Shown piece by piece: positions 1-62,460 of a DNA stretch of 64,000 bases; position 1 is the first letter of the stretch; each line of letters begins with the position of its first letter. The position numbers and the translations under genes are program-made. Source of the DNA: Candidatus Enterousia sp. (GTDB taxonomy: Bacteria > Pseudomonadota > Alphaproteobacteria > Rs-D84); assembly GCA_045613785.1 (NCBI GenBank), contig JAZLBQ010000026.1, positions 1-64,000 of the forward strand, read 5' to 3'. The notes below the pieces were generated by a model. That model was given only the letters and a program-made list of their open reading frames with translations, did no database searches and was not told where the DNA came from.

Positions 1-1659
1 GACCTGACGCAAGTTTGGTTCGTCCAGCATAATCTGAACCAGTCGATCCAAACCGAACGCACAACCACCGTGTGGCGGTGCACCATATTGGAATGCAGTA
101 TACATACCACCGAACTTTTCTTTTACAACATCTTCGCTGTACCCAGTGATATCAAAGCATTTCAACATAACTTCTGGGTTAAAGTTACGCAATCCACCAC
201 TGCAAATTTCTGCACCATTCAAGACCATATCAAACTGAGCGGCTTTGATTTCCAATGGATTTTTTGTATTTAATTCTTCCAATGTTGCCATCGGGAACGA
301 GAACGGATTATGTGTAAACGCAATACCTGTTGGTGATTCTTCATCTTCTTCAAAGAATGGGAATTCTTCAATCCAGCAGAATCTGAATTCTTTTTTATTT
401 ATCAAATTCAAATCTTCGCCTAACTTATTACGCAACTTACCTGCGGCCTTGGCTGCGGCGTTCTTTTCGTCGCACACAAAGAACAACGAAGAATTATCGC
501 CTGCAATTTCACGCAGTTTTGCAATACGTTCTGCATCTAATTTTTTTGCCACAGGTCCTTTTGCTTCTTCTGCAAAAACGATATATCCCAAACCACCCAG
601 ACCTAGTTCTTTGACTGCGAATTCACCCAGTTTATCGAACCAAGAACGTGGTTTATCTGCTGAATTAGGTGCAGGAATAGCACGAACAACACTGCCATTT
701 TCGACAGCATTTGCAAAGATACCAAAATCAGACCCACGGAATATTTCCGTCACATCACTGATAACAATAGGGTTACGCAAATCTGGCTTATCAGATCCAT
801 ACTTTAACATAGCCTCATCAAAAGGAATATGTGGAATTTCTGGGTGAATAATCGCATCTGGCACAAATTCACGGATCATTTCTGGCATCAATTTATTACC
901 CACCGCCTGAATATCTGGCAGGTCAACAAAGGACATTTCCAAATCCAACTGATAGAATTCCAGCAATCTGTCTGCACGCAAATCTTCATCACGGAAGCAA
1001 GGTGCAATCTGGAAATAGCGGTCAAAACCAGAAATCTGAATAAACTGCTTAAACTGCTGTGGTGCCTGTGGCAATGCATAGAACATACCATGATGATTAC
1101 GACTTGGCACGATAAAATCACGAGCCCCTTCTGGGCTAGACGCTGTCAAAATAGGTGTCTGGAATTCTGAAAAACCCATACCCCACATTTTATCACGAAT
1201 AAACTTCATCACCCGATTGCGGAACAAGATATTTTTATGCAAACTTTCACGACGCAAATCGATATAACGATATTTCAATCTTAAATCTTCGGCCACAGAA
1301 TCATCATCGCCAAAAACCTGGAACGGCAGAACATCAGCATTAGTCAACACCTCAAAAGATTCAGCCTGAATTTCGATACCACCTGTTGGGATTTTATCGT
1401 TCACGGCGGCGGCATCACGTGCCACAACCTTTCCCACTACTTTAATCACAGATTCTGGACGCACTTTTTCCAGTGCTTCATTTCCGCCATCAAAAACAAT
1501 CTGTGTAATACCATAATTATCACGCAGGTCAACAAACAACAAAGCCCCGTGATCACGTTTACGATGCACCCACCCCGACAAAACAACAGTTTCGCCAACG
1601 TTTTGTGTGTTCAGTTCACCACACGTATGTGTTCTATACTTTGATTTCAAAGATAACAT
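1..1659 (-). CDS. aspS: aspartate--tRNA ligase (3' end runs off the window)
   Basis: Not in the ORF track because it has no stop in the window. Minus-strand translation from ATG 1659: MLSLKSKYRTHTCGEL...LSGWVHRKRDHGALLFVDLRD...LRLKYRYIDLRR...QIAPCFRDEDLRADR...PPHGGCAFGLDRL, which are class II AspRS motifs. Confidence 0.96.
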   Translation of the reverse strand, partial: MLSLKSKYRTHTCGELNTQNVGETVVLSGWVHRKRDHGALLFVDLRDNYGITQIVFDGGNEALEKVRPESVIKVVGKVVARDAAAVNDKIPTGGIEIQAESFEVLTNADVLPFQVFGDDDSVAEDLRLKYRYIDLRRESLHKNILFRNRVMKFIRDKMWGMGFSEFQTPILTASSPEGARDFIVPSRNHHGMFYALPQAPQQFKQFIQISGFDRYFQIAPCFRDEDLRADRLLEFYQLDLEMSFVDLPDIQAVGNKLMPEMIREFVPDAIIHPEIPHIPFDEAMLKYGSDKPDLRNPIVISDVTEIFRGSDFGIFANAVENGSVVRAIPAPNSADKPRSWFDKLGEFAVKELGLGGLGYIVFAEEAKGPVAKKLDAERIAKLREIAGDNSSLFFVCDEKNAAAKAAGKLRNKLGEDLNLINKKEFRFCWIEEFPFFEEDEESPTGIAFTHNPFSFPMATLEELNTKNPLEIKAAQFDMVLNGAEICSGGLRNFNPEVMLKCFDITGYSEDVVKEKFGGMYTAFQYGAPPHGGCAFGLDRLVQIMLDEPNLRQV

Positions 1660-1661
1660 TT

Positions 1662-1828
1662 TGGTCCCTTTTTTATTTTGGGCAACGAATTCAAGATTGT
1701 AATTCGGCACCCGATTTAATTGTTAAACTTCAGGGGCGCAAGTCTATAATGGCTGCGCGGTGCCACCCTGATTTATAACTTTCATAAAAAAATCGCACTC
1801 CGTGGTTGTCAGGCACATCATCGCACTA
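1662..1828 (-). promoter_or_regulatory. T-box riboswitch-like leader of aspS (Asp specifier GAC)
   Basis: Minus strand AAAUCAGGG-UGGCACC-GCGCA...UGCGC-CCCUG is a canonical antiterminator (1731-1774). Upstream short Stem I GCGAUGAU-GUG-CCUGACAAC-CAC-GGAGUGC has GAC at 1808-1810. Confidence 0.85.
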
Positions 1829-1913
1829 AATTTTTTTCAATATCCTGATATTATTCTATAAAAATCCTATTTGCAATAAAAAGTTATCAGCATCTGCCCC
1901 AAGATTATTACAG

Positions 1914-3164: not shown

Positions 3165-4442
3165 ATGTTGGATATAAAATTTATTCGTGAAAACCCAGAC
3201 GCAATAAAAAAAGCCTGTGAATTAAAGGGTTTTGATGACCACACCGATGAAATTTTAGCACTGGACGCCCGTGTTCGTGAATTAAAGACAATCACCCAGT
3301 CCAAGACCGCAGAAAAGAATAAAATTACACGTGAAATTCCAACAGCAACGGACAAAGCCCCATTGATTGCACGTTCACGTGAAATAGGTGCAGAAATTGC
3401 GGCTGACCTGGATGAACTGGCCAACAAAGAGACACAATTAAACGACCTGATGCACCGTGTTCCACAAATTCCATCAGCTGACGCCCCTATTGGTCGTGAC
3501 GACAGTGAAAATATAGAAGTCCGCCGTGTTGGCACGCCACGTGAATTTGATTTTACCCCACGTCCACAGTGGGAATTGCTGGAAATGAACGGCTGGTGGA
3601 AACCAGAAAAGATTGCATCTATCTGTGGAACACGCACCTATGCCCTGTTTGGCGAAGCCGCAGAACTGGAATTGGCGATTCAAACCTATGTATTACAAAA
3701 ACTGATAGCCAAAGGTTTTACATTTGTAAACTGCCCATCGATTACAAAGCCACAAACAATCTTTAACGCAGGGCACTTTATGGGTGCGGACCAATCAGTT
3801 ATGGCAAACGACGTATTTATGCTGACAGACACTGATCGTTGCCTGGCTGGGACTGCTGAAATTATCCTAAATTCTCTGCACAGTGATGAAGTCTTAAATG
3901 AAAAAGACCTGCCAATCAAATACGCAGGATTTTCGCCATGCTTCCGCAAAGAAGCCGGTGCTGCTGGTCGTGACACCCGTGGAATCGTGCGTATTCACCA
4001 ATTTAACAAGGTTGAACAATACATCTATTGCACACCTGAACAATCAGACGAAATGCACGAACATTTGTTAAATAATTTATGTGAAGTCATGGCAGACCTG
4101 GAATTACCATACCGTGTAATTGCGGCCTGCACTGGCGACATGGGCTTTAACAAAATCAAGATGCACGACGTAGAAGCCTGGTTTCCAAGTGAAAACACAT
4201 ATCGTGAACTTGGTTCATGTTCATCGATTGGTCAATTCCAGGCTCGTCGCACAAACACACGCTATCGTGATAAAAATGGCAACATGCAGTTCTGTGCAAC
4301 CCTGAACAACACAGGTATTGCCCTGCCCCGTGCGATTGTGCCAGTAATTGAAAATCACCAAAACCCAGACGGTTCTGTAAACATACCAAAATGCTTACAA
4401 GCCTTGATGGGCGGTCGCACAAAAATTGGTGGCAAACACTAA
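3165..4442 (+). CDS. serS: serine--tRNA ligase
   Basis: MLDIKFIRENPD N-terminus, GTAE, FRKEAGAAGRDTRGIVRIHQFNKVE, ELGSCS, TLNNTG motifs. Confidence 0.96.
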   Translation: MLDIKFIRENPDAIKKACELKGFDDHTDEILALDARVRELKTITQSKTAEKNKITREIPTATDKAPLIARSREIGAEIAADLDELANKETQLNDLMHRVPQIPSADAPIGRDDSENIEVRRVGTPREFDFTPRPQWELLEMNGWWKPEKIASICGTRTYALFGEAAELELAIQTYVLQKLIAKGFTFVNCPSITKPQTIFNAGHFMGADQSVMANDVFMLTDTDRCLAGTAEIILNSLHSDEVLNEKDLPIKYAGFSPCFRKEAGAAGRDTRGIVRIHQFNKVEQYIYCTPEQSDEMHEHLLNNLCEVMADLELPYRVIAACTGDMGFNKIKMHDVEAWFPSENTYRELGSCSSIGQFQARRTNTRYRDKNGNMQFCATLNNTGIALPRAIVPVIENHQNPDGSVNIPKCLQALMGGRTKIGGKH

Positions 4443-35056: not shown

Positions 35057-35217
35057 AAACAAACGCAAAATAGATGATGAATTTCTGGTGCCCGCAGGGT
35101 GCCAGAAAATTATCAGATATTGCGTATTGTGCAAATTTTACGATGGGCGTGTATTGAACATACATAACCTGAGTAAAATTAAACAAACGCAAAATAGATG
35201 GTGAATTTCTGGTGCCC
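35057..35217. repeat. 37 bp direct repeat including the tRNA-Thr 3' end, flanking a related palindromic module
   Basis: AAACAAACGCAAAATAGATG(A/G)TGAATTTCTGGTGCCC at 35057-35093 and 35181-35217. Confidence 0.85.
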
Positions 35218-35283
35218 TAAGCAAGAATCGGACTTGCGACTCGTCCTTACCAAGGACGTGTTTTACCACTAGACTATTAGGGC
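35210..35283 (-). tRNA. tRNA-Thr(GGT)
   Basis: GCCCTAATAGTCTAGTGGTAAAACACGTCCTTGGTAAGGACG...TTAGGGCACCA cloverleaf. Confidence 0.93.
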
Positions 35284-53574: not shown

Positions 53575-54672
53575 TTGGCTTCTTTTACTTTAAAAAAATT
53601 TCCAGACATTTTATCCGATATACCATCAACTACAGATACATCTAGTGCCTTATTAAAATTAGCTAGATATGATGGCATGATAGAATTCATACCGTATCCA
53701 GAAGTATTAACAAGCATATTATTTTACCAAGAATCGGTTATGTCATCTAGACTGGAAGGCACGATAGCAACAATTACTGACATATTAAATTATAAAGTTG
53801 GAAAAAATCTATCAGAAAGATTAGAAAAAGACGCTACAGAAATAGAAAATTATAAAGACGCTCTAGGATACTGTATTAAAGAAGCAAAAGATAATAATTT
53901 TGAAATCACAAACAGACTAATAAAAAACATACAAGCTATTATACTAAACAACTCTAGAGGTGGAGACAAACTTAAAGGAAAATATAAAGAAAAACAGAAT
54001 TATATAGGTAATAAATACGATGGAGAGATAACATATACTCCAGTATCTTACTTACACACAGAAGAATATATGAATAATCTAATAAATTTTATAAATTCAA
54101 ATACATCTGAAAACCCGCTTGTTAAAACCGCAATTATTCATGCATATTTTGAACTAATACACCCTTTTGAAGATGGAAACGGAAGAGTTGGACGTATTTT
54201 AATACCAATACTATTAAAAAAATACAATATACTATCCACGCCATATTTTTATATAAGTTATTACTTTTCTGTAAATAGAAACAAATACATATCTGCCTTG
54301 GAAAAAATTTCAAAAGAAAACGATTGGCAGACCTGGATTGACTTTTTTATCAAAGCAATTGAACACCAGACAACGGTATTAACAAACATATTAAGACAAT
54401 TAAAAGAAATTAGAAAAAAAACAGAAGAAGAAATATCAAGCTTAAAAACACAATTTTGTATCCCTATACTTAATTTTCTATTTAAACAAATTAAATTTAA
54501 AACTACTGATTTTATAGAAAAAACAGGAATTAATGCTAACACATCAAGAGCATTATTGAAAACACTAGAAGAGAAAAACATACTTGAAATAGAAGAAAAA
54601 GGAACCGGACAAAGTCCAACAATATACAGGTTTAAAGAGTTATATCAAATTGTTAAGGATATATCAGCATAA
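53575..54672 (+). CDS. Fic family protein (DUF4172/SoFic-like, with C-terminal wHTH)
   Basis: ESVMSSRLEGT inhibitory-helix region, catalytic HPFEDGNGRVGR. Confidence 0.92.
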   Translation: MASFTLKKFPDILSDIPSTTDTSSALLKLARYDGMIEFIPYPEVLTSILFYQESVMSSRLEGTIATITDILNYKVGKNLSERLEKDATEIENYKDALGYCIKEAKDNNFEITNRLIKNIQAIILNNSRGGDKLKGKYKEKQNYIGNKYDGEITYTPVSYLHTEEYMNNLINFINSNTSENPLVKTAIIHAYFELIHPFEDGNGRVGRILIPILLKKYNILSTPYFYISYYFSVNRNKYISALEKISKENDWQTWIDFFIKAIEHQTTVLTNILRQLKEIRKKTEEEISSLKTQFCIPILNFLFKQIKFKTTDFIEKTGINANTSRALLKTLEEKNILEIEEKGTGQSPTIYRFKELYQIVKDISA

Positions 54673-60030: not shown

Positions 60031-62460
60031 TTACTCTGCCGCCCCCTGCTTTTTCAGGTATTCATTTACAAAATTATTACCATACATTTTGTATAATTCT
60101 TCTGCCAACAGCACTGACGAGCGTCCAGATTCAAACAATCTCAACAGATTTCCCAAACCGCCCAATTCTGTATTTAATATAACAGATTCACCATTTACAG
60201 GTCTTGACAACAACACAGCTCTTTTCAGATTTGGATATGCCTTACCCTGGATAAAAGCCATTTCCAGCGGATTCAAATTCCAGTGTGCATAGTCATTTGC
60301 ATCAGCGGCAGGATTTCTGAAAAACATCACCGTCTGAGCCTGTCCACGCACCACATCACCAATTCCCATTTTATCCAAAACATTCGCACGTTGGAACGCC
60401 ACCATATATGCCTGACGGTTTTTACGTCCTTCTTGTAAACCGGTAATAAAGTTATCACGGAACATTTTGTTTTCCAGCATAGGTGCAGTTTCGTCAATCA
60501 TAATCAGCGACGGATTTCCCCCTGACACAGTAATATTATTGATTCTGTGCAAGATATAAGAAATAACTGCTGGCGACAAGACCTCGTCCTGTAAGATATC
60601 AGTAAAATCGAACGTAGTCAGTCTTGAATGTAAATCCAATGTATCTGATGCTTCATTAAACATATCACCATATTGCAGTGGATCGACCCATTTTTTTAGT
60701 GCGGGCCGCATATTACCAGCCGAAGAAAAACAACTTTCCCACAGATTTTTCAACATTCTGTCATTTTCGTTCAGATAATCAAAATTCACGGAAACAGCCC
60801 GTGCTATTTCATCTGCTGACACTGCATCATTTTGTCCAGAAATAATGGCAAACCACCGCCGCAAGAACGCACGATTTGCGGCACTATCAGGCATTTTCAA
60901 TGGATTTAAGTGTGTAATAAAACTTTGTTCTGTTGCATTTTGAGCTTTTTCCTTTCCCTGCATAGTGATATATTTTCCACCAGCGGCCAGTGTGAATATT
61001 TCTGCCCCTTTATTTCTATCAAAGAAAAACGCTTTTAACTTTGGATGTCTTAAACTTTGTGCAATCAGGAAAGAAAACAGCGTAGTTTTTCCCCCACCTG
61101 TCGGACCTATTGTCAAAGTATGTCCCACAGCAGCAGGTTTATCAGACACATGGAATTGGAATTGATAAGGTGTTCCCTGTGCAGTTGGGAAAACCACCAA
61201 TGGTCCTGGACCCCAGTCTGAATTTTCAACACCACGTGGCTGGGTTGACATAGGAATTGAAATTGCTGCTGCCCTTGACAACAACTTGAAACTGCGTGGG
61301 AAAACATCAAATCCTGGGATTTGTGCAAACCACGAAACTTTTGACGCAAACGTTTCCACGACAGGCGAAATTCCAAATGTTGCTGAAATCTTTTTAAATT
61401 CATCAACATACTTTTGCAAATCACTTGGCGTTGCCCCGAACAGAACAAACAGCGGATAATAATTTACCAGACTTTGATTTCCTGAAACATTTTCGTCCAT
61501 CACGCTTTGTGCCTGAGAAATTTGTGTTTCTGTTGAATCTTTGTTTTCATCTGCTGTTGAACGCCGCTGACGGATAGTCGCTTCTACATCTGCAGCCCCC
61601 ATAATATGAAATCCGTTCATACAAATCATTTCTGTCTGAATAGTAGATATTGTATCAAAGAATTCTTCTTCCAGATAATCAGGTGAAATCTTGAAAGACA
61701 AACAAGCAGCAAACGATTGATTTGGTCCACTGATATATCTTATTAAACCATCATTCAAGAATTCTACATCATCAACGGTTGTTAAACTAGCAATATTGTT
61801 ATCGGCCCTCATTGGTCTTGGTTTTGAAATAGGCGATAATATACGCCCCAAAAAGCAGGCCATATTATCAGGTGCATTATTTTTCAACAATTTTGGTCGA
61901 TACGCTGCCAATATAGATTCAATATAATTACCATATTGATTTAATTTTGCCCGTGCATCACTGCCACTAACTGACAAAACGACATAGTAATTATTCAAAA
62001 ATATTTTCAAGCCTTGTCCCCGCCACTTATTATAGATACGCTGTAAGGTAGGCTGATCAAATTCATAGTTTGTATTTTCATCTGCTGCATCACGCACCAT
62101 ATAGAAACGCAACACAACATTAGGGTCTCTGATTTGATTAAACAACTGTGCTCTTAAATCCAAGAATTTTTCTTTTGTAGCATTATCCTGCATACTGGTC
62201 TGAACACCATCAATATGATAAACCCTGATGATACTACCGTCAGTCAGTTCCATTGAATTATCATTATAAACAGTTTTGAACGGCAAATAGTTAGCATATT
62301 TTGCATATCCGAACTTTGGGAACAGCCTTTTTGTTAAAAAGGGCAAATAAATCAGCAATACAATAAACACAAACGCCACAGCCAAGGCCAGAACCACCAA
62401 AGTCATCTGAAAACCACTACCTGCGAAATAGTTAAAAAAATCATTTAAATGTGTGTTCAT
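60031..62460 (-). CDS. virB4: type IV secretion ATPase VirB4
   Basis: WFAQIPG, GHTLTIGPTGGGKTT Walker A, FFDRNKG, IMIDE Walker B, GRKNR. Coupled to the upstream small TM protein. Confidence 0.88.
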   Translation of the reverse strand: MNTHLNDFFNYFAGSGFQMTLVVLALAVAFVFIVLLIYLPFLTKRLFPKFGYAKYANYLPFKTVYNDNSMELTDGSIIRVYHIDGVQTSMQDNATKEKFLDLRAQLFNQIRDPNVVLRFYMVRDAADENTNYEFDQPTLQRIYNKWRGQGLKIFLNNYYVVLSVSGSDARAKLNQYGNYIESILAAYRPKLLKNNAPDNMACFLGRILSPISKPRPMRADNNIASLTTVDDVEFLNDGLIRYISGPNQSFAACLSFKISPDYLEEEFFDTISTIQTEMICMNGFHIMGAADVEATIRQRRSTADENKDSTETQISQAQSVMDENVSGNQSLVNYYPLFVLFGATPSDLQKYVDEFKKISATFGISPVVETFASKVSWFAQIPGFDVFPRSFKLLSRAAAISIPMSTQPRGVENSDWGPGPLVVFPTAQGTPYQFQFHVSDKPAAVGHTLTIGPTGGGKTTLFSFLIAQSLRHPKLKAFFFDRNKGAEIFTLAAGGKYITMQGKEKAQNATEQSFITHLNPLKMPDSAANRAFLRRWFAIISGQNDAVSADEIARAVSVNFDYLNENDRMLKNLWESCFSSAGNMRPALKKWVDPLQYGDMFNEASDTLDLHSRLTTFDFTDILQDEVLSPAVISYILHRINNITVSGGNPSLIMIDETAPMLENKMFRDNFITGLQEGRKNRQAYMVAFQRANVLDKMGIGDVVRGQAQTVMFFRNPAADANDYAHWNLNPLEMAFIQGKAYPNLKRAVLLSRPVNGESVILNTELGGLGNLLRLFESGRSSVLLAEELYKMYGNNFVNEYLKKQGAAE

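Follow-up and report, generated by a model that had tools for sequence, protein, structure and literature searches.

The aspS locus and its leader

We analysed 64,000 nucleotides from Candidatus Enterousia sp. (GenBank assembly GCA_045613785.1, contig JAZLBQ010000026.1, positions 1 to 64,000 of the forward strand; hereafter the window), in which the minus strand carries aspS at the left end. Its product, a bacterial-type aspartate--tRNA ligase (AspRS), was matched by NCBIfam NF001750 with 694.7 bits (cut-off 443) and revealed a conserved N-terminus (MLSLKSKYRTHTCGEL). Directly upstream of this gene lies a short leader built from T-box elements, which is almost certainly homologous to the T-box riboswitches and which, judging from its sequence and that of its relatives, probably works as a T-box-type leader that senses tRNA-Asp or tRNA-Asn and acts on the translation of aspS. 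Its elements are compiled in Table 1.

Stem I of the leader is reduced to two helices, P1 and P2, separated by a kink-turn (K-turn), and ends in the specifier loop CCUGACAAC, whose inner seven nucleotides (CUGACAA) resemble an anticodon loop bearing the Asp codon GAC and then an A. This placement of the specifier is atypical, as it lies in a terminal rather than an internal loop; in the ultrashort form of actinobacterial ileS T-boxes, the specifier reportedly resides in the apical loop. After a purine-rich linker follows the antiterminator (antisequestrator), in which the helices A1 and A2 enclose the T-box bulge, and further downstream lie a conserved block termed D1, its partner strand D2, the Shine-Dalgarno (SD) sequence and the start codon. 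Measured from P1 to the 3' strand of A1, the aptamer spans 91-103 nt in the 30 leaders compared in this study. A first-pass annotation of the window had described on the minus strand a complete antiterminator (CAGGG/CCCUG, UGGCACC, GCGCA/UGCGC) and a very short Stem I with a GA motif and a GAC loop, and all of these were found at the place where it had put them; only its left limit had to be moved, as the outer part of Stem I reaches position 1837.

Table 1. Elements of the aspS leader and adjoining features in the window (MFE, minimum free energy structure; CDS, coding sequence)
Feature	Position	Strand	Remarks
T-box-type leader	1837..1657	-	directly 5' of aspS; elements in canonical T-box order
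Whole Stem I, this copy	1786..1837	-	outer A-run 1837-1831 pairs with U-run 1792-1786 in the MFE of 1729-1841
Stem I core	1795..1826	-	P1, K-turn and P2
P1	GUGC 1826-1823 with GUGC 1798-1795	-	compensatory changes; 94% of alignment cells paired
K-turn/GA motif	GAU-GA 1822-1818 opposite GA 1800-1799	-	assigned by sequence pattern only
P2, 4 bp	UGUG 1817-1814 with CACG 1804-1801	-	90% paired
Specifier loop CCUGACAAC, 9 nt, terminal	1805..1813	-	GAC at 1810-1808, then conserved A
Purine-rich linker GAAAGUUAUAAAU	1771..1783	-	conserved columns; matches the Stem III flanks of the Rfam consensus
Antiterminator (antisequestrator)	1731..1770	-	RF00230 alignment at high posterior probability; core invariant in 30/30
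A1	CAGGG 1770-1766 with CCCUG 1735-1731	-	100% paired in the aptamer alignment
T-box bulge UGGCACC, 7 nt	1765-1759	-	between A1 and A2
A2 helix	GCGCA 1758-1754 with UGCGC 1740-1736	-	antiterminator loop 1753-1741
D1 GGGUGCCG	1705..1712	-	invariant block 3' of the antiterminator
D1:D2 hairpin, GGGUG.CGAAUU ... AAUUCG.UGCCC	1680..1712	-	D2 = 1686-1680; in the RNAalifold consensus
Shine-Dalgarno AAGGGA	1665..1670	-	conserved block AAGGGACC = 1670-1663
aspS CDS, bacterial-type aspartate--tRNA ligase	1659..1	-	ATG 1659-1657; leaves the window at its end
Candidate promoter, by-eye reading	1848..1876	-	TTGCAA 1876-1871, 17-nt spacer, TAATAT 1853-1848

Conservation and covariation

Using the AspRS of the window as query, we gathered a set of 79 aspS loci (numbered with the prefix L). 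The core GGGTGGCACCGCG was present without mismatch in 29 of these, always on the strand of aspS and 64-131 nt before the ATG, and was absent from 49 others, each with an AspRS identity of at most 70%; for the remaining locus (L002), upstream DNA was lacking. The window and the 29 loci together yielded the 30 sequences of the aptamer alignment (alignment A2, not to be confused with the helix of that name), and the same 30 leaders were used to build a covariance model, R1.

The stated structure with its 22 pairs was tested on this alignment against 500 shuffles and against slid controls. Under this structure 91.2% of the cells were paired, compared to 77.9 +/- 0.9% after shuffling and 37-57% in the slid controls, and double-sided changes were detected in 13 of the 22 pairs. 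The covariation score amounted to 0.445 (shuffled: 0.197), a value that none of the 500 shuffles matched. Compensatory changes affected all five pairs examined for P1 (5/5), double changes two of the four pairs of P2, and the two outer pairs of A1 covary as well (CG 25/UA 5 for one and AU 18, GU 6, CG 4, GC 2 for the other), while the inner pairs of A1 and those of helix A2 never vary and are uninformative either way. Apart from the helices, the UGA of the K-turn was identified in all 30 leaders and the opposing GA in 28, and the linker columns A68, A69, G70, T71, A73, A75, and A76 show no or almost no variation. The loops and linkers around these elements vary freely.

Besides proposing the T-box identity, the first-pass annotation had named an alignment of aspS leaders and an Infernal search as ways to check it. 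The alignment bore the proposal out: the signature elements occur in order and are conserved, Stem I and the antiterminator covary, and conservation or covariation extends in the orthologous leaders to GAC, UGGC and the helices, whose lack of conservation would have refuted the annotation by its own terms. The search with Infernal gave a divided answer. In a permissive local search of 601 nt, the Rfam T-box model RF00230 matched the leader with 31.1 bits (E = 3.9e-5), far under its gathering score of 93; the antiterminator half was aligned with the Rfam consensus (AAaUaGGGUGGUACCGCG...CGUCCCu) at high posterior probability, and the Stem I half was misaligned. A gathering-level Rfam scan of the whole window reported no T-box, and of the T-box-bearing loci, 20 of which were scanned in the same way, none (0/20) reached the T-box threshold. 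The permissive search also listed DUF2815 RNA (E = 4, 1657-1713) and snoR28 (E = 8.9), both taken as chance matches.

Other signals derived from the single sequence were inconspicuous. Allowing at most one mismatch, the 12-nt core motif occurred twice in the window with 1.41 matches expected and is insignificant when taken alone, and folding energies were unremarkable, the aptamer having a z-score of +0.18 and the expression platform one of -1.02. Such single-sequence signals are insufficient, and it is the comparative evidence that gives decisive support for the leader. The sub-threshold score, the chance frequency of the motif and the ordinary folding energy would also suit an element that is no T-box at all, namely a chance resemblance or an operator that binds AspRS by mimicking tRNA-Asp; a synthetase-binding, tRNA-mimicking operator of this type belongs to E. 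coli thrS. We regard such a reading as exceedingly improbable, since all T-box signature elements are jointly conserved in canonical order with covariation, and since the loop GAC complements the anticodon GUC rather than copying it and so cannot mimic an anticodon arm.

The outermost part of Stem I is a variable helix: only 67.8% of the cells in the corresponding columns of the aptamer alignment (8-10/57-59) are paired, and the A-run and U-run are particular to the window copy, with other sequences in this place in the relatives. About half of the leaders have in common there (columns 8-14 and 53-59) a conserved Stem I base of the form GGG(C/U)GCG ... (U/C)AAACCC, which includes an A-rich internal loop; in L007, for instance, it is located at 2266-2272 and about 2308-2314, and GC occupies the three outer pairs in 10-15 of the 30 leaders. 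It is purely speculative that this A-rich loop might substitute for Stem II by docking on the codon-anticodon helix.

Specifier codon and tRNA identity

The specifier reads GAC in 26 of the 30 leaders and AAC (Asn) in the other four, namely L006, L027, L028, and L030, where the specifier loop is found about 45-50 nt 5' of the core at 2895, 2886, 2894, and 2898, respectively. No other codon was detected among the 30 leaders, and both the A-C-A following the first codon base and the UGGC of the bulge are invariant. Mapped on a quick IQ-TREE phylogeny of AspRS (37 sequences), the GAC/AAC switch takes three changes, and leader similarity indicates at least two: the L028 leader groups with the type of L025, L026, and L032, and L006, L027, and L030 have another antiterminator loop in common.

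As described in PMC9976931, aspartate identity depends in all domains on G73 as a major determinant, which tRNA-Asn has as well, the two tRNAs differ at C36/U36, and a non-discriminating AspRS charges both of them. Position 36 is the one that reads the first codon base, and GAC and AAC are the codons of the two tRNAs that an AspRS can charge. Such a restriction would be difficult to account for if no tRNA anticodon were reading the loop. AAC upstream of aspS fits a non-discriminating AspRS that would also charge tRNA-Asn. The UGGC of the bulge predicts a G73 in the cognate tRNA, its match with the discriminator of tRNA-Asp resting on the literature. From the agreement on Asp that had been noted before between specifier, discriminator, and downstream gene, the GAC specifier, the UGGC bulge, and the aspS gene hold for the window; four of the orthologous leaders carry the Asn codon AAC instead.

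Missing elements and comparison with known T-boxes

Since Stem I closes with the specifier loop directly atop P2, it carries no distal platform. Between the 3' end of P1 and A1 lie only 23-28 nt in all 30 leaders, which leaves no space for Stem II, the IIA/B pseudoknot, or Stem III; for comparison, a typical Stem II domain is given as about 70 nt (PMC7583486). The absence of Stem II, already pointed out in the first-pass annotation, is borne out by this linker, and as no hairpin is possible in it, Stem III is absent too. What the linker retains is the string (G)AAAGU-N-AUAAAU, which is like the flanks of Stem III in the Rfam consensus (AAAGUG ... AAAUAGGG; consensus line ...AAAGuG[Stem III]AAaUaGGG), so that it looks as if Stem III had been excised with its flanking purine strings kept. 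A further deviation concerns the pair of helix A2 beside the bulge (columns 90-115), which is G-C in 30/30 leaders where the canonical pair is G.U, corresponding to CGCCCC in these leaders versus CGUCCC in the Rfam consensus. By its sequence, the leader is clearly a variant within the T-box family, its descent being clear and several features that define this family or are near-universal in it being lost. The earlier view of a minimal T-box in an unexpected lineage therefore stands, with Stem III and the G.U pair as additional losses.

According to the review PMC7583486, a truncated Stem I makes Stem II indispensable, an antiterminator devoid of Stem III shows no appreciable tRNA binding, and the 3'-aminoacyl group is sensed sterically first of all by the G.U pair. 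One might take the missing distal part of Stem I, the missing Stems II and III, the G-C in place of the G.U sensor, and the predicted stability of the antiterminator by itself in many leaders as signs of a decayed T-box relic that has lost charge sensing and persists as a constitutive structure of the 5' untranslated region, e.g., for mRNA stability or for processing after an upstream tRNA-Thr, whose gene in L008, L016, L018, and L027 is located within 100 nt on the 5' side of the core. This we consider quite unlikely, given that the codon, the next A, the K-turn, UGGCACC, and the linker purines would not have stayed invariant in a relic down to 75% AspRS identity, nor would codon changes be limited to GAC<->AAC amid freely varying neighbouring loops and linkers.

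Among known systems, the T-boxes of actinobacterial ileS genes (Mycobacterium tuberculosis, M. smegmatis, and Nocardia farcinica) are translational, like the reading we favour for the aspS leader. According to PMC7583486 and PMC12647780, they have in common with it a truncated Stem I without elbow platform, a basal K-turn, a canonical bulge between A1 and A2, the lack of a terminator, an aminoacyl-tRNA synthetase gene downstream, and, on our preferred reading, a choice between antisequestrator and sequestrator; unlike the aspS leader, they retain Stem II including the S-turn, as well as the IIA/B pseudoknot and Stem III, elements reported to be indispensable for tRNA binding where Stem I is short. 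They also differ in responding to Ile and in belonging to a different phylum, and the aspS leader possesses in addition the conserved D1:D2 hairpin between antiterminator and SD. The glyQS T-boxes of Bacillales resemble the leader in that they naturally lack Stem II and IIA/B, a linker following the K-turn (PMC7583486); among known T-box riboswitches, these two elements are absent only from glycine T-boxes. In contrast to the aspS leader, however, the long Stem I of glyQS T-boxes bears a distal platform stacking on the tRNA elbow, Stem III, the G.U sensor pair, and an intrinsic terminator are present, and their GGC:GCC pairing consists of G-C pairs throughout, which is not the case for GAC:GUC.

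In Proteobacteria, a 2008 survey listed T-boxes in 2 of 125 genomes, the only ones being those of leuA in the Deltaproteobacteria Geobacter sulfurreducens and Pelobacter carbinolicus (PMC2494555). As described there, these have the typical elements and precede a biosynthetic gene; unlike the aspS leader they are neither minimal nor alphaproteobacterial. The translational model of TBDB was applied to nothing but Actinobacteria and those class I hits whose Stem I is truncated (PMC7778990), a scope by which the Enterousia leader class would have been missed. No prior report of this alphaproteobacterial element was found in open-access papers and bioRxiv, supplements aside.

Expression platform and proposed mechanism

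No terminator-like site, i.e., a stem followed by a U-run, was detected in 1550-2150, so that the expression platform, which the first-pass annotation had left undescribed, differs from the classical one. A D1:D2 hairpin is predicted in 29 of the 30 leaders and is followed by an A-rich tract instead of a U-run. According to reviews most known T-boxes are transcriptional, and an OFF state could conceivably expose a long AU-rich strand 5' of the SD to Rho or RNase E. Transcription attenuation, whether classical or dependent on Rho or RNase, nevertheless appears very unlikely here, considering the missing stem with U-run, the A-rich tract after D1:D2, and the (C)RAAAUYC that follows the helix of 3' strand and D1.

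The SD region reads AAGGGACC in 18 leaders (GGGACC type), with AGGGGUC, (G)GGUGUA, GGGAAC, GAGGAAC, and GGGUCC as variants, and other genes of the window have SDs of the AAGGA/AAGGG type at an equal distance to the start. The 3' strand of the antiterminator is complementary to the SD over 4 bp (CCCU/AGGG) in most leaders and over 6 bp in L005, L029, and L031 (GCCCCU/AGGGGU) as well as in L025 and L026 (GCGCCC/GGGUGU), and it ranks within the top three SD partners in 27 of the 30 leaders. For the whole platform, RNAalifold predicted the antiterminator together with D1:D2 and an open SD; with the 5' strand of the T-box withheld, the 3' strand was paired to D1. The MFE of the window leader folded with 12 nt of coding sequence revealed CCCU paired with AGGG around the D1:D2 hairpin, and full-length MFEs are dominated by spurious long-range pairs.

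Based on these pairings, and by analogy with the translational model of this kind for actinobacterial ileS T-boxes (PMC12647780), regulation is most likely translational, by competition for the 3' strand of the antiterminator. The anticodon GUC of tRNA-Asp would pair with GAC in the anticodon-loop-like terminal loop, which is presented by the 4-bp helix over the K-turn, and the free 3' end G73-C-C-A would pair with the UGGC of the bulge and thereby stabilise the A1/A2 antiterminator. As long as this structure is held, the 3' strand (GCGC-CCCU) would be occupied, D1:D2 would form, and the SD would be free for translation of aspS. With tRNA-Asp charged or lacking, release of the 3' strand would let it pair with the SD (AGGG, AGGGGU, or GGGUGU) and/or with D1, and initiation would fall. 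In the four relatives with AAC, the device would read tRNA-Asn, as the substrate of a non-discriminating AspRS.

Several results weigh against this reading. The leader lacks both Stem II and Stem III, which are reported to be necessary, and with G-C in place of G.U, charge discrimination may be weak or may work differently. The 18 leaders with a GGGACC-type SD pair with the 3' strand over only 4 bp, and in L001 and L011 the 3' strand lies outside the three best partners of the SD. In constrained modelling of three states, the antiterminator ensemble was on average the most stable, the ensembles with bulge:D1 and 3'-strand:D1 pairing lying +1.8 +/- 2.6 and +5.6 +/- 2.3 kcal/mol above it, respectively, and the predicted accessibility of the SD did not differ between states (Wilcoxon p = 0.49 and 0.72), so that no clear switch emerged from the energy models. 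Furthermore, a scan for tRNA genes in the window and 34 loci identified no gene for tRNA-Asp or tRNA-Asn, and both the low Rfam score and the unremarkable folding energies described above count here as well.

The block D1 deserves separate consideration. Its consensus is GGGUGCC(R), with position 1 being G in 25 of 29 leaders (U in the other 4/29), positions 2-5 invariant (29/29), position 6 C in 28/29, position 7 an invariant C (29/29), and position 8 a purine in 28/29. The heptamer GGUGCCR complements the whole bulge and also the antiterminator 3' strand, and possible partners of D1 are UGGCACC (positions 2-8, 7 bp), GCGCCC (positions 1-6, 6 bp including one G.U), or D2. D2 itself varies (UUGCCC, GCGCCC, GUGCCC, GCACCC, GUACCC, GCUCCC, GCACU, ACACC, and others), and since D1 stays invariant while D2 varies, D1 must have a second, invariant partner. 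The bulge and the 3' strand are both invariant, so covariation cannot choose between them. The limits of conservation fit the bulge better, as positions 7-8 are kept and position 1 is relaxed; with the bulge as partner, GCC(A/G) would resemble a tRNA 3' end.

This leads to a reading in which the T-box aptamer is kept and D1 is a cis-encoded mimic of the tRNA acceptor end, in place of sequestration of the SD by the 3' strand. GGUGCC(A/G) would mask the 7-nt bulge until uncharged tRNA displaces D1, which would then pair with D2, and the state of D2 and of the AU-rich tract would set translation or access of RNase. The pattern of conservation is in line with it: positions 2-7 are near-invariant beside a free D2, positions 7 and 8 matter only for pairing with the bulge, position 1 has a role solely in the pairing with the 3' strand and is the one relaxed to U, and no base other than U at position 4 would suit the bulge A as well as the 3'-strand G. 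Bulge:D1 is also nearer in energy to the antiterminator than 3'-strand:D1 is, and unconstrained RNAfold MFEs gave bulge:D1 in L003 and L019. On the other hand, covariation gives no test of it, L010 manages without D1 and D2, D2:SD pairing amounts merely to GGG/CCC in the majority class, the lack of a difference in predicted SD accessibility between states applies here too, and RNAalifold without the T-box 5' strand favours 3' strand:D1. Overall, we judge D1 as an acceptor mimic replacing SD sequestration to be unlikely and retain competition for the 3' strand as the preferred reading.

In L010, whose leader (290-363) is the only one without D1:D2, the SD region GGGUCC is located 19 nt past the antiterminator, at the usual place of D1. 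This arrangement counts in favour of the preferred reading. It looks as if the D1 and SD blocks, which resemble each other, had been joined by a deletion, or else like an ancestral simple form.

Three further pairings or devices were considered and rejected. Pairing of the 3' part of the antiterminator loop with the sequence after the antiterminator resembled covariation but was dropped as a general feature (Wilcoxon p = 0.13, 29 leaders). Such complementarity exists only in subsets, i.e., as AGACUU/AAGUUU in the window (1741-1746 with 1725-1730) and as AAAUCUUA/UAAGAUUU in L019, L025, L026, L028, and L032, where it would exclude the antiterminator. A general relay by D2:SD pairing was rejected in view of 5-6 bp occurring only in the group with GGUGU-type SDs and 3 bp in the majority, and has a place solely within the acceptor-mimic reading. 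Attenuation by a leader peptide was dropped because the AUG in the K-turn (GAUGA) is absent in 17 of the 30 leaders (GUUGA, AGUGA, UGUGA).

Combining these elements, one can tentatively picture a T-box of about 95 nt that would hold its tRNA through no more than two short Watson-Crick contacts, a kiss between the anticodon and the anticodon-like loop and the NCCA/UGGC pairing, and would do so without elbow platform, Stem II, Stem III, or G.U sieve. Here the acceptor-mimicking heptamer GGUGCC(A/G) would mask the bulge until displaced by uncharged tRNA, the signal would be relayed via D2 to the ribosome-binding site, and the device, gained once in a gut alphaproteobacterial lineage with reduced genomes, would on at least two occasions have switched its target from tRNA-Asp to tRNA-Asn through one G-to-A change. 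Taken as a whole, this picture is possible yet rather doubtful.

Host, distribution, and significance

The best match of the AspRS stems from a metagenome-assembled genome (MAG) of Ca. Enterousia (95% identity), and the best matches overall were to Candidatus Enterousia and to MAGs of gut and rumen Alphaproteobacteria (75-95% identity). According to NCBIfam, the window encodes addB_alphas, pal, lolCDE, lpxC, lpxK, and virB4, and is part of a Gram-negative, alphaproteobacterial chromosome rather than a misbinned Firmicute contig. Thus, the alphaproteobacterial host suspected from the sequence at first was confirmed by the AspRS match and by addB_alphas, pal, lolCDE, lpxC, and lpxK. Enterousia belongs to the order Rs-D84 and is described as having genomes of less than about 1 Mbp and no amino-acid biosynthesis (PMC12306168).

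All 29 T-box-bearing loci derive from Candidatus Enterousia-like gut Alphaproteobacteria. In the AspRS tree, the 30 T-box-bearing genes form one group (SH-like approximate likelihood ratio test, 94) on a long stem, sister to L033, which has no T-box, and the presence of the T-box takes one change on this tree, corresponding to a single gain. A gain across phyla is likely. Searching 622 kb (window plus loci) with R1 recovered just the 30 leaders with 79-112 bits, and no further T-box was found in the rest of the window or in the 50 loci without core. The next match, with 22.3 bits, lies in L036 (2628-2722, minus strand), a more distant gut alphaproteobacterium, on the strand opposite aspS; it has a Stem-I-like K-turn, a GAC loop, and UGGCAC, no antiterminator helices, and is probably due to chance. 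The gene serS (3165-4442, plus strand), located divergently beside trxB, revealed no T-box-like leader by motif or by R1, and with R1 silent otherwise, the device is specific to aspS within the window.

According to structural work, a T-box needs a long Stem I platform or Stem II for tRNA binding, and Stem III and the G.U pair for reading the aminoacyl group. A conserved leader without all four would be either a true minimal tRNA-sensing core or a different mechanism of charge sensing or competition. It also extends the range of T-boxes to the Alphaproteobacteria, namely to an uncultured, genome-reduced gut lineage described as unable to make amino acids (PMC12306168). Since this leader class is invisible at the Rfam threshold, similarly reduced T-boxes may be overlooked elsewhere. 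Its small size and retargeting by a single base (GAC to AAC) would make it attractive for engineered tRNA sensors.

Genomic neighbourhood

Upstream of the leader, the candidate promoter TTGCAA/TAATAT agrees with 8 of 12 consensus positions and, with low confidence, would put the transcript start at about 1841; a simple promoter scan of the minus strand reported no promoter, this candidate included. In some relatives, a gene for tRNA-Thr(GGU) is located on the same strand just 5' of the leader (L018, 2754-2827; L008, 2747-2820; L016, 2735-2808; L027, 2717-2790), and in 16 more T-box loci it lies farther upstream. In L018, the tRNA-Thr ends about 3-4 nt before Stem I, a spacing that leaves no room for a promoter and points to co-transcription, with the 5' end of the leader arising from tRNA processing. 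In the window, tRNA-Thr(GGU) is found 33 kb away (35210-35283), and it is trxB that precedes the leader.

Between trxB and the aspS leader we detected an inverted repeat (1914-1953/1977-2016; 40 nt, 80% complementary, 23-nt gap), which overlaps the stop codon of trxB and is followed by a T-rich run on the minus strand. It may represent the terminator of trxB or a repeat element. Far from the leader, the window harbors a gene similar to Fic-family adenylyltransferases (53575-54672, plus strand) and one for a VirB4-type ATPase of type IV secretion (60031-62460, minus strand). This part of the window has a lower GC content (0.34-0.38) and many neighbouring open reading frames without an NCBIfam match, and may be a mobile or interaction-related region.

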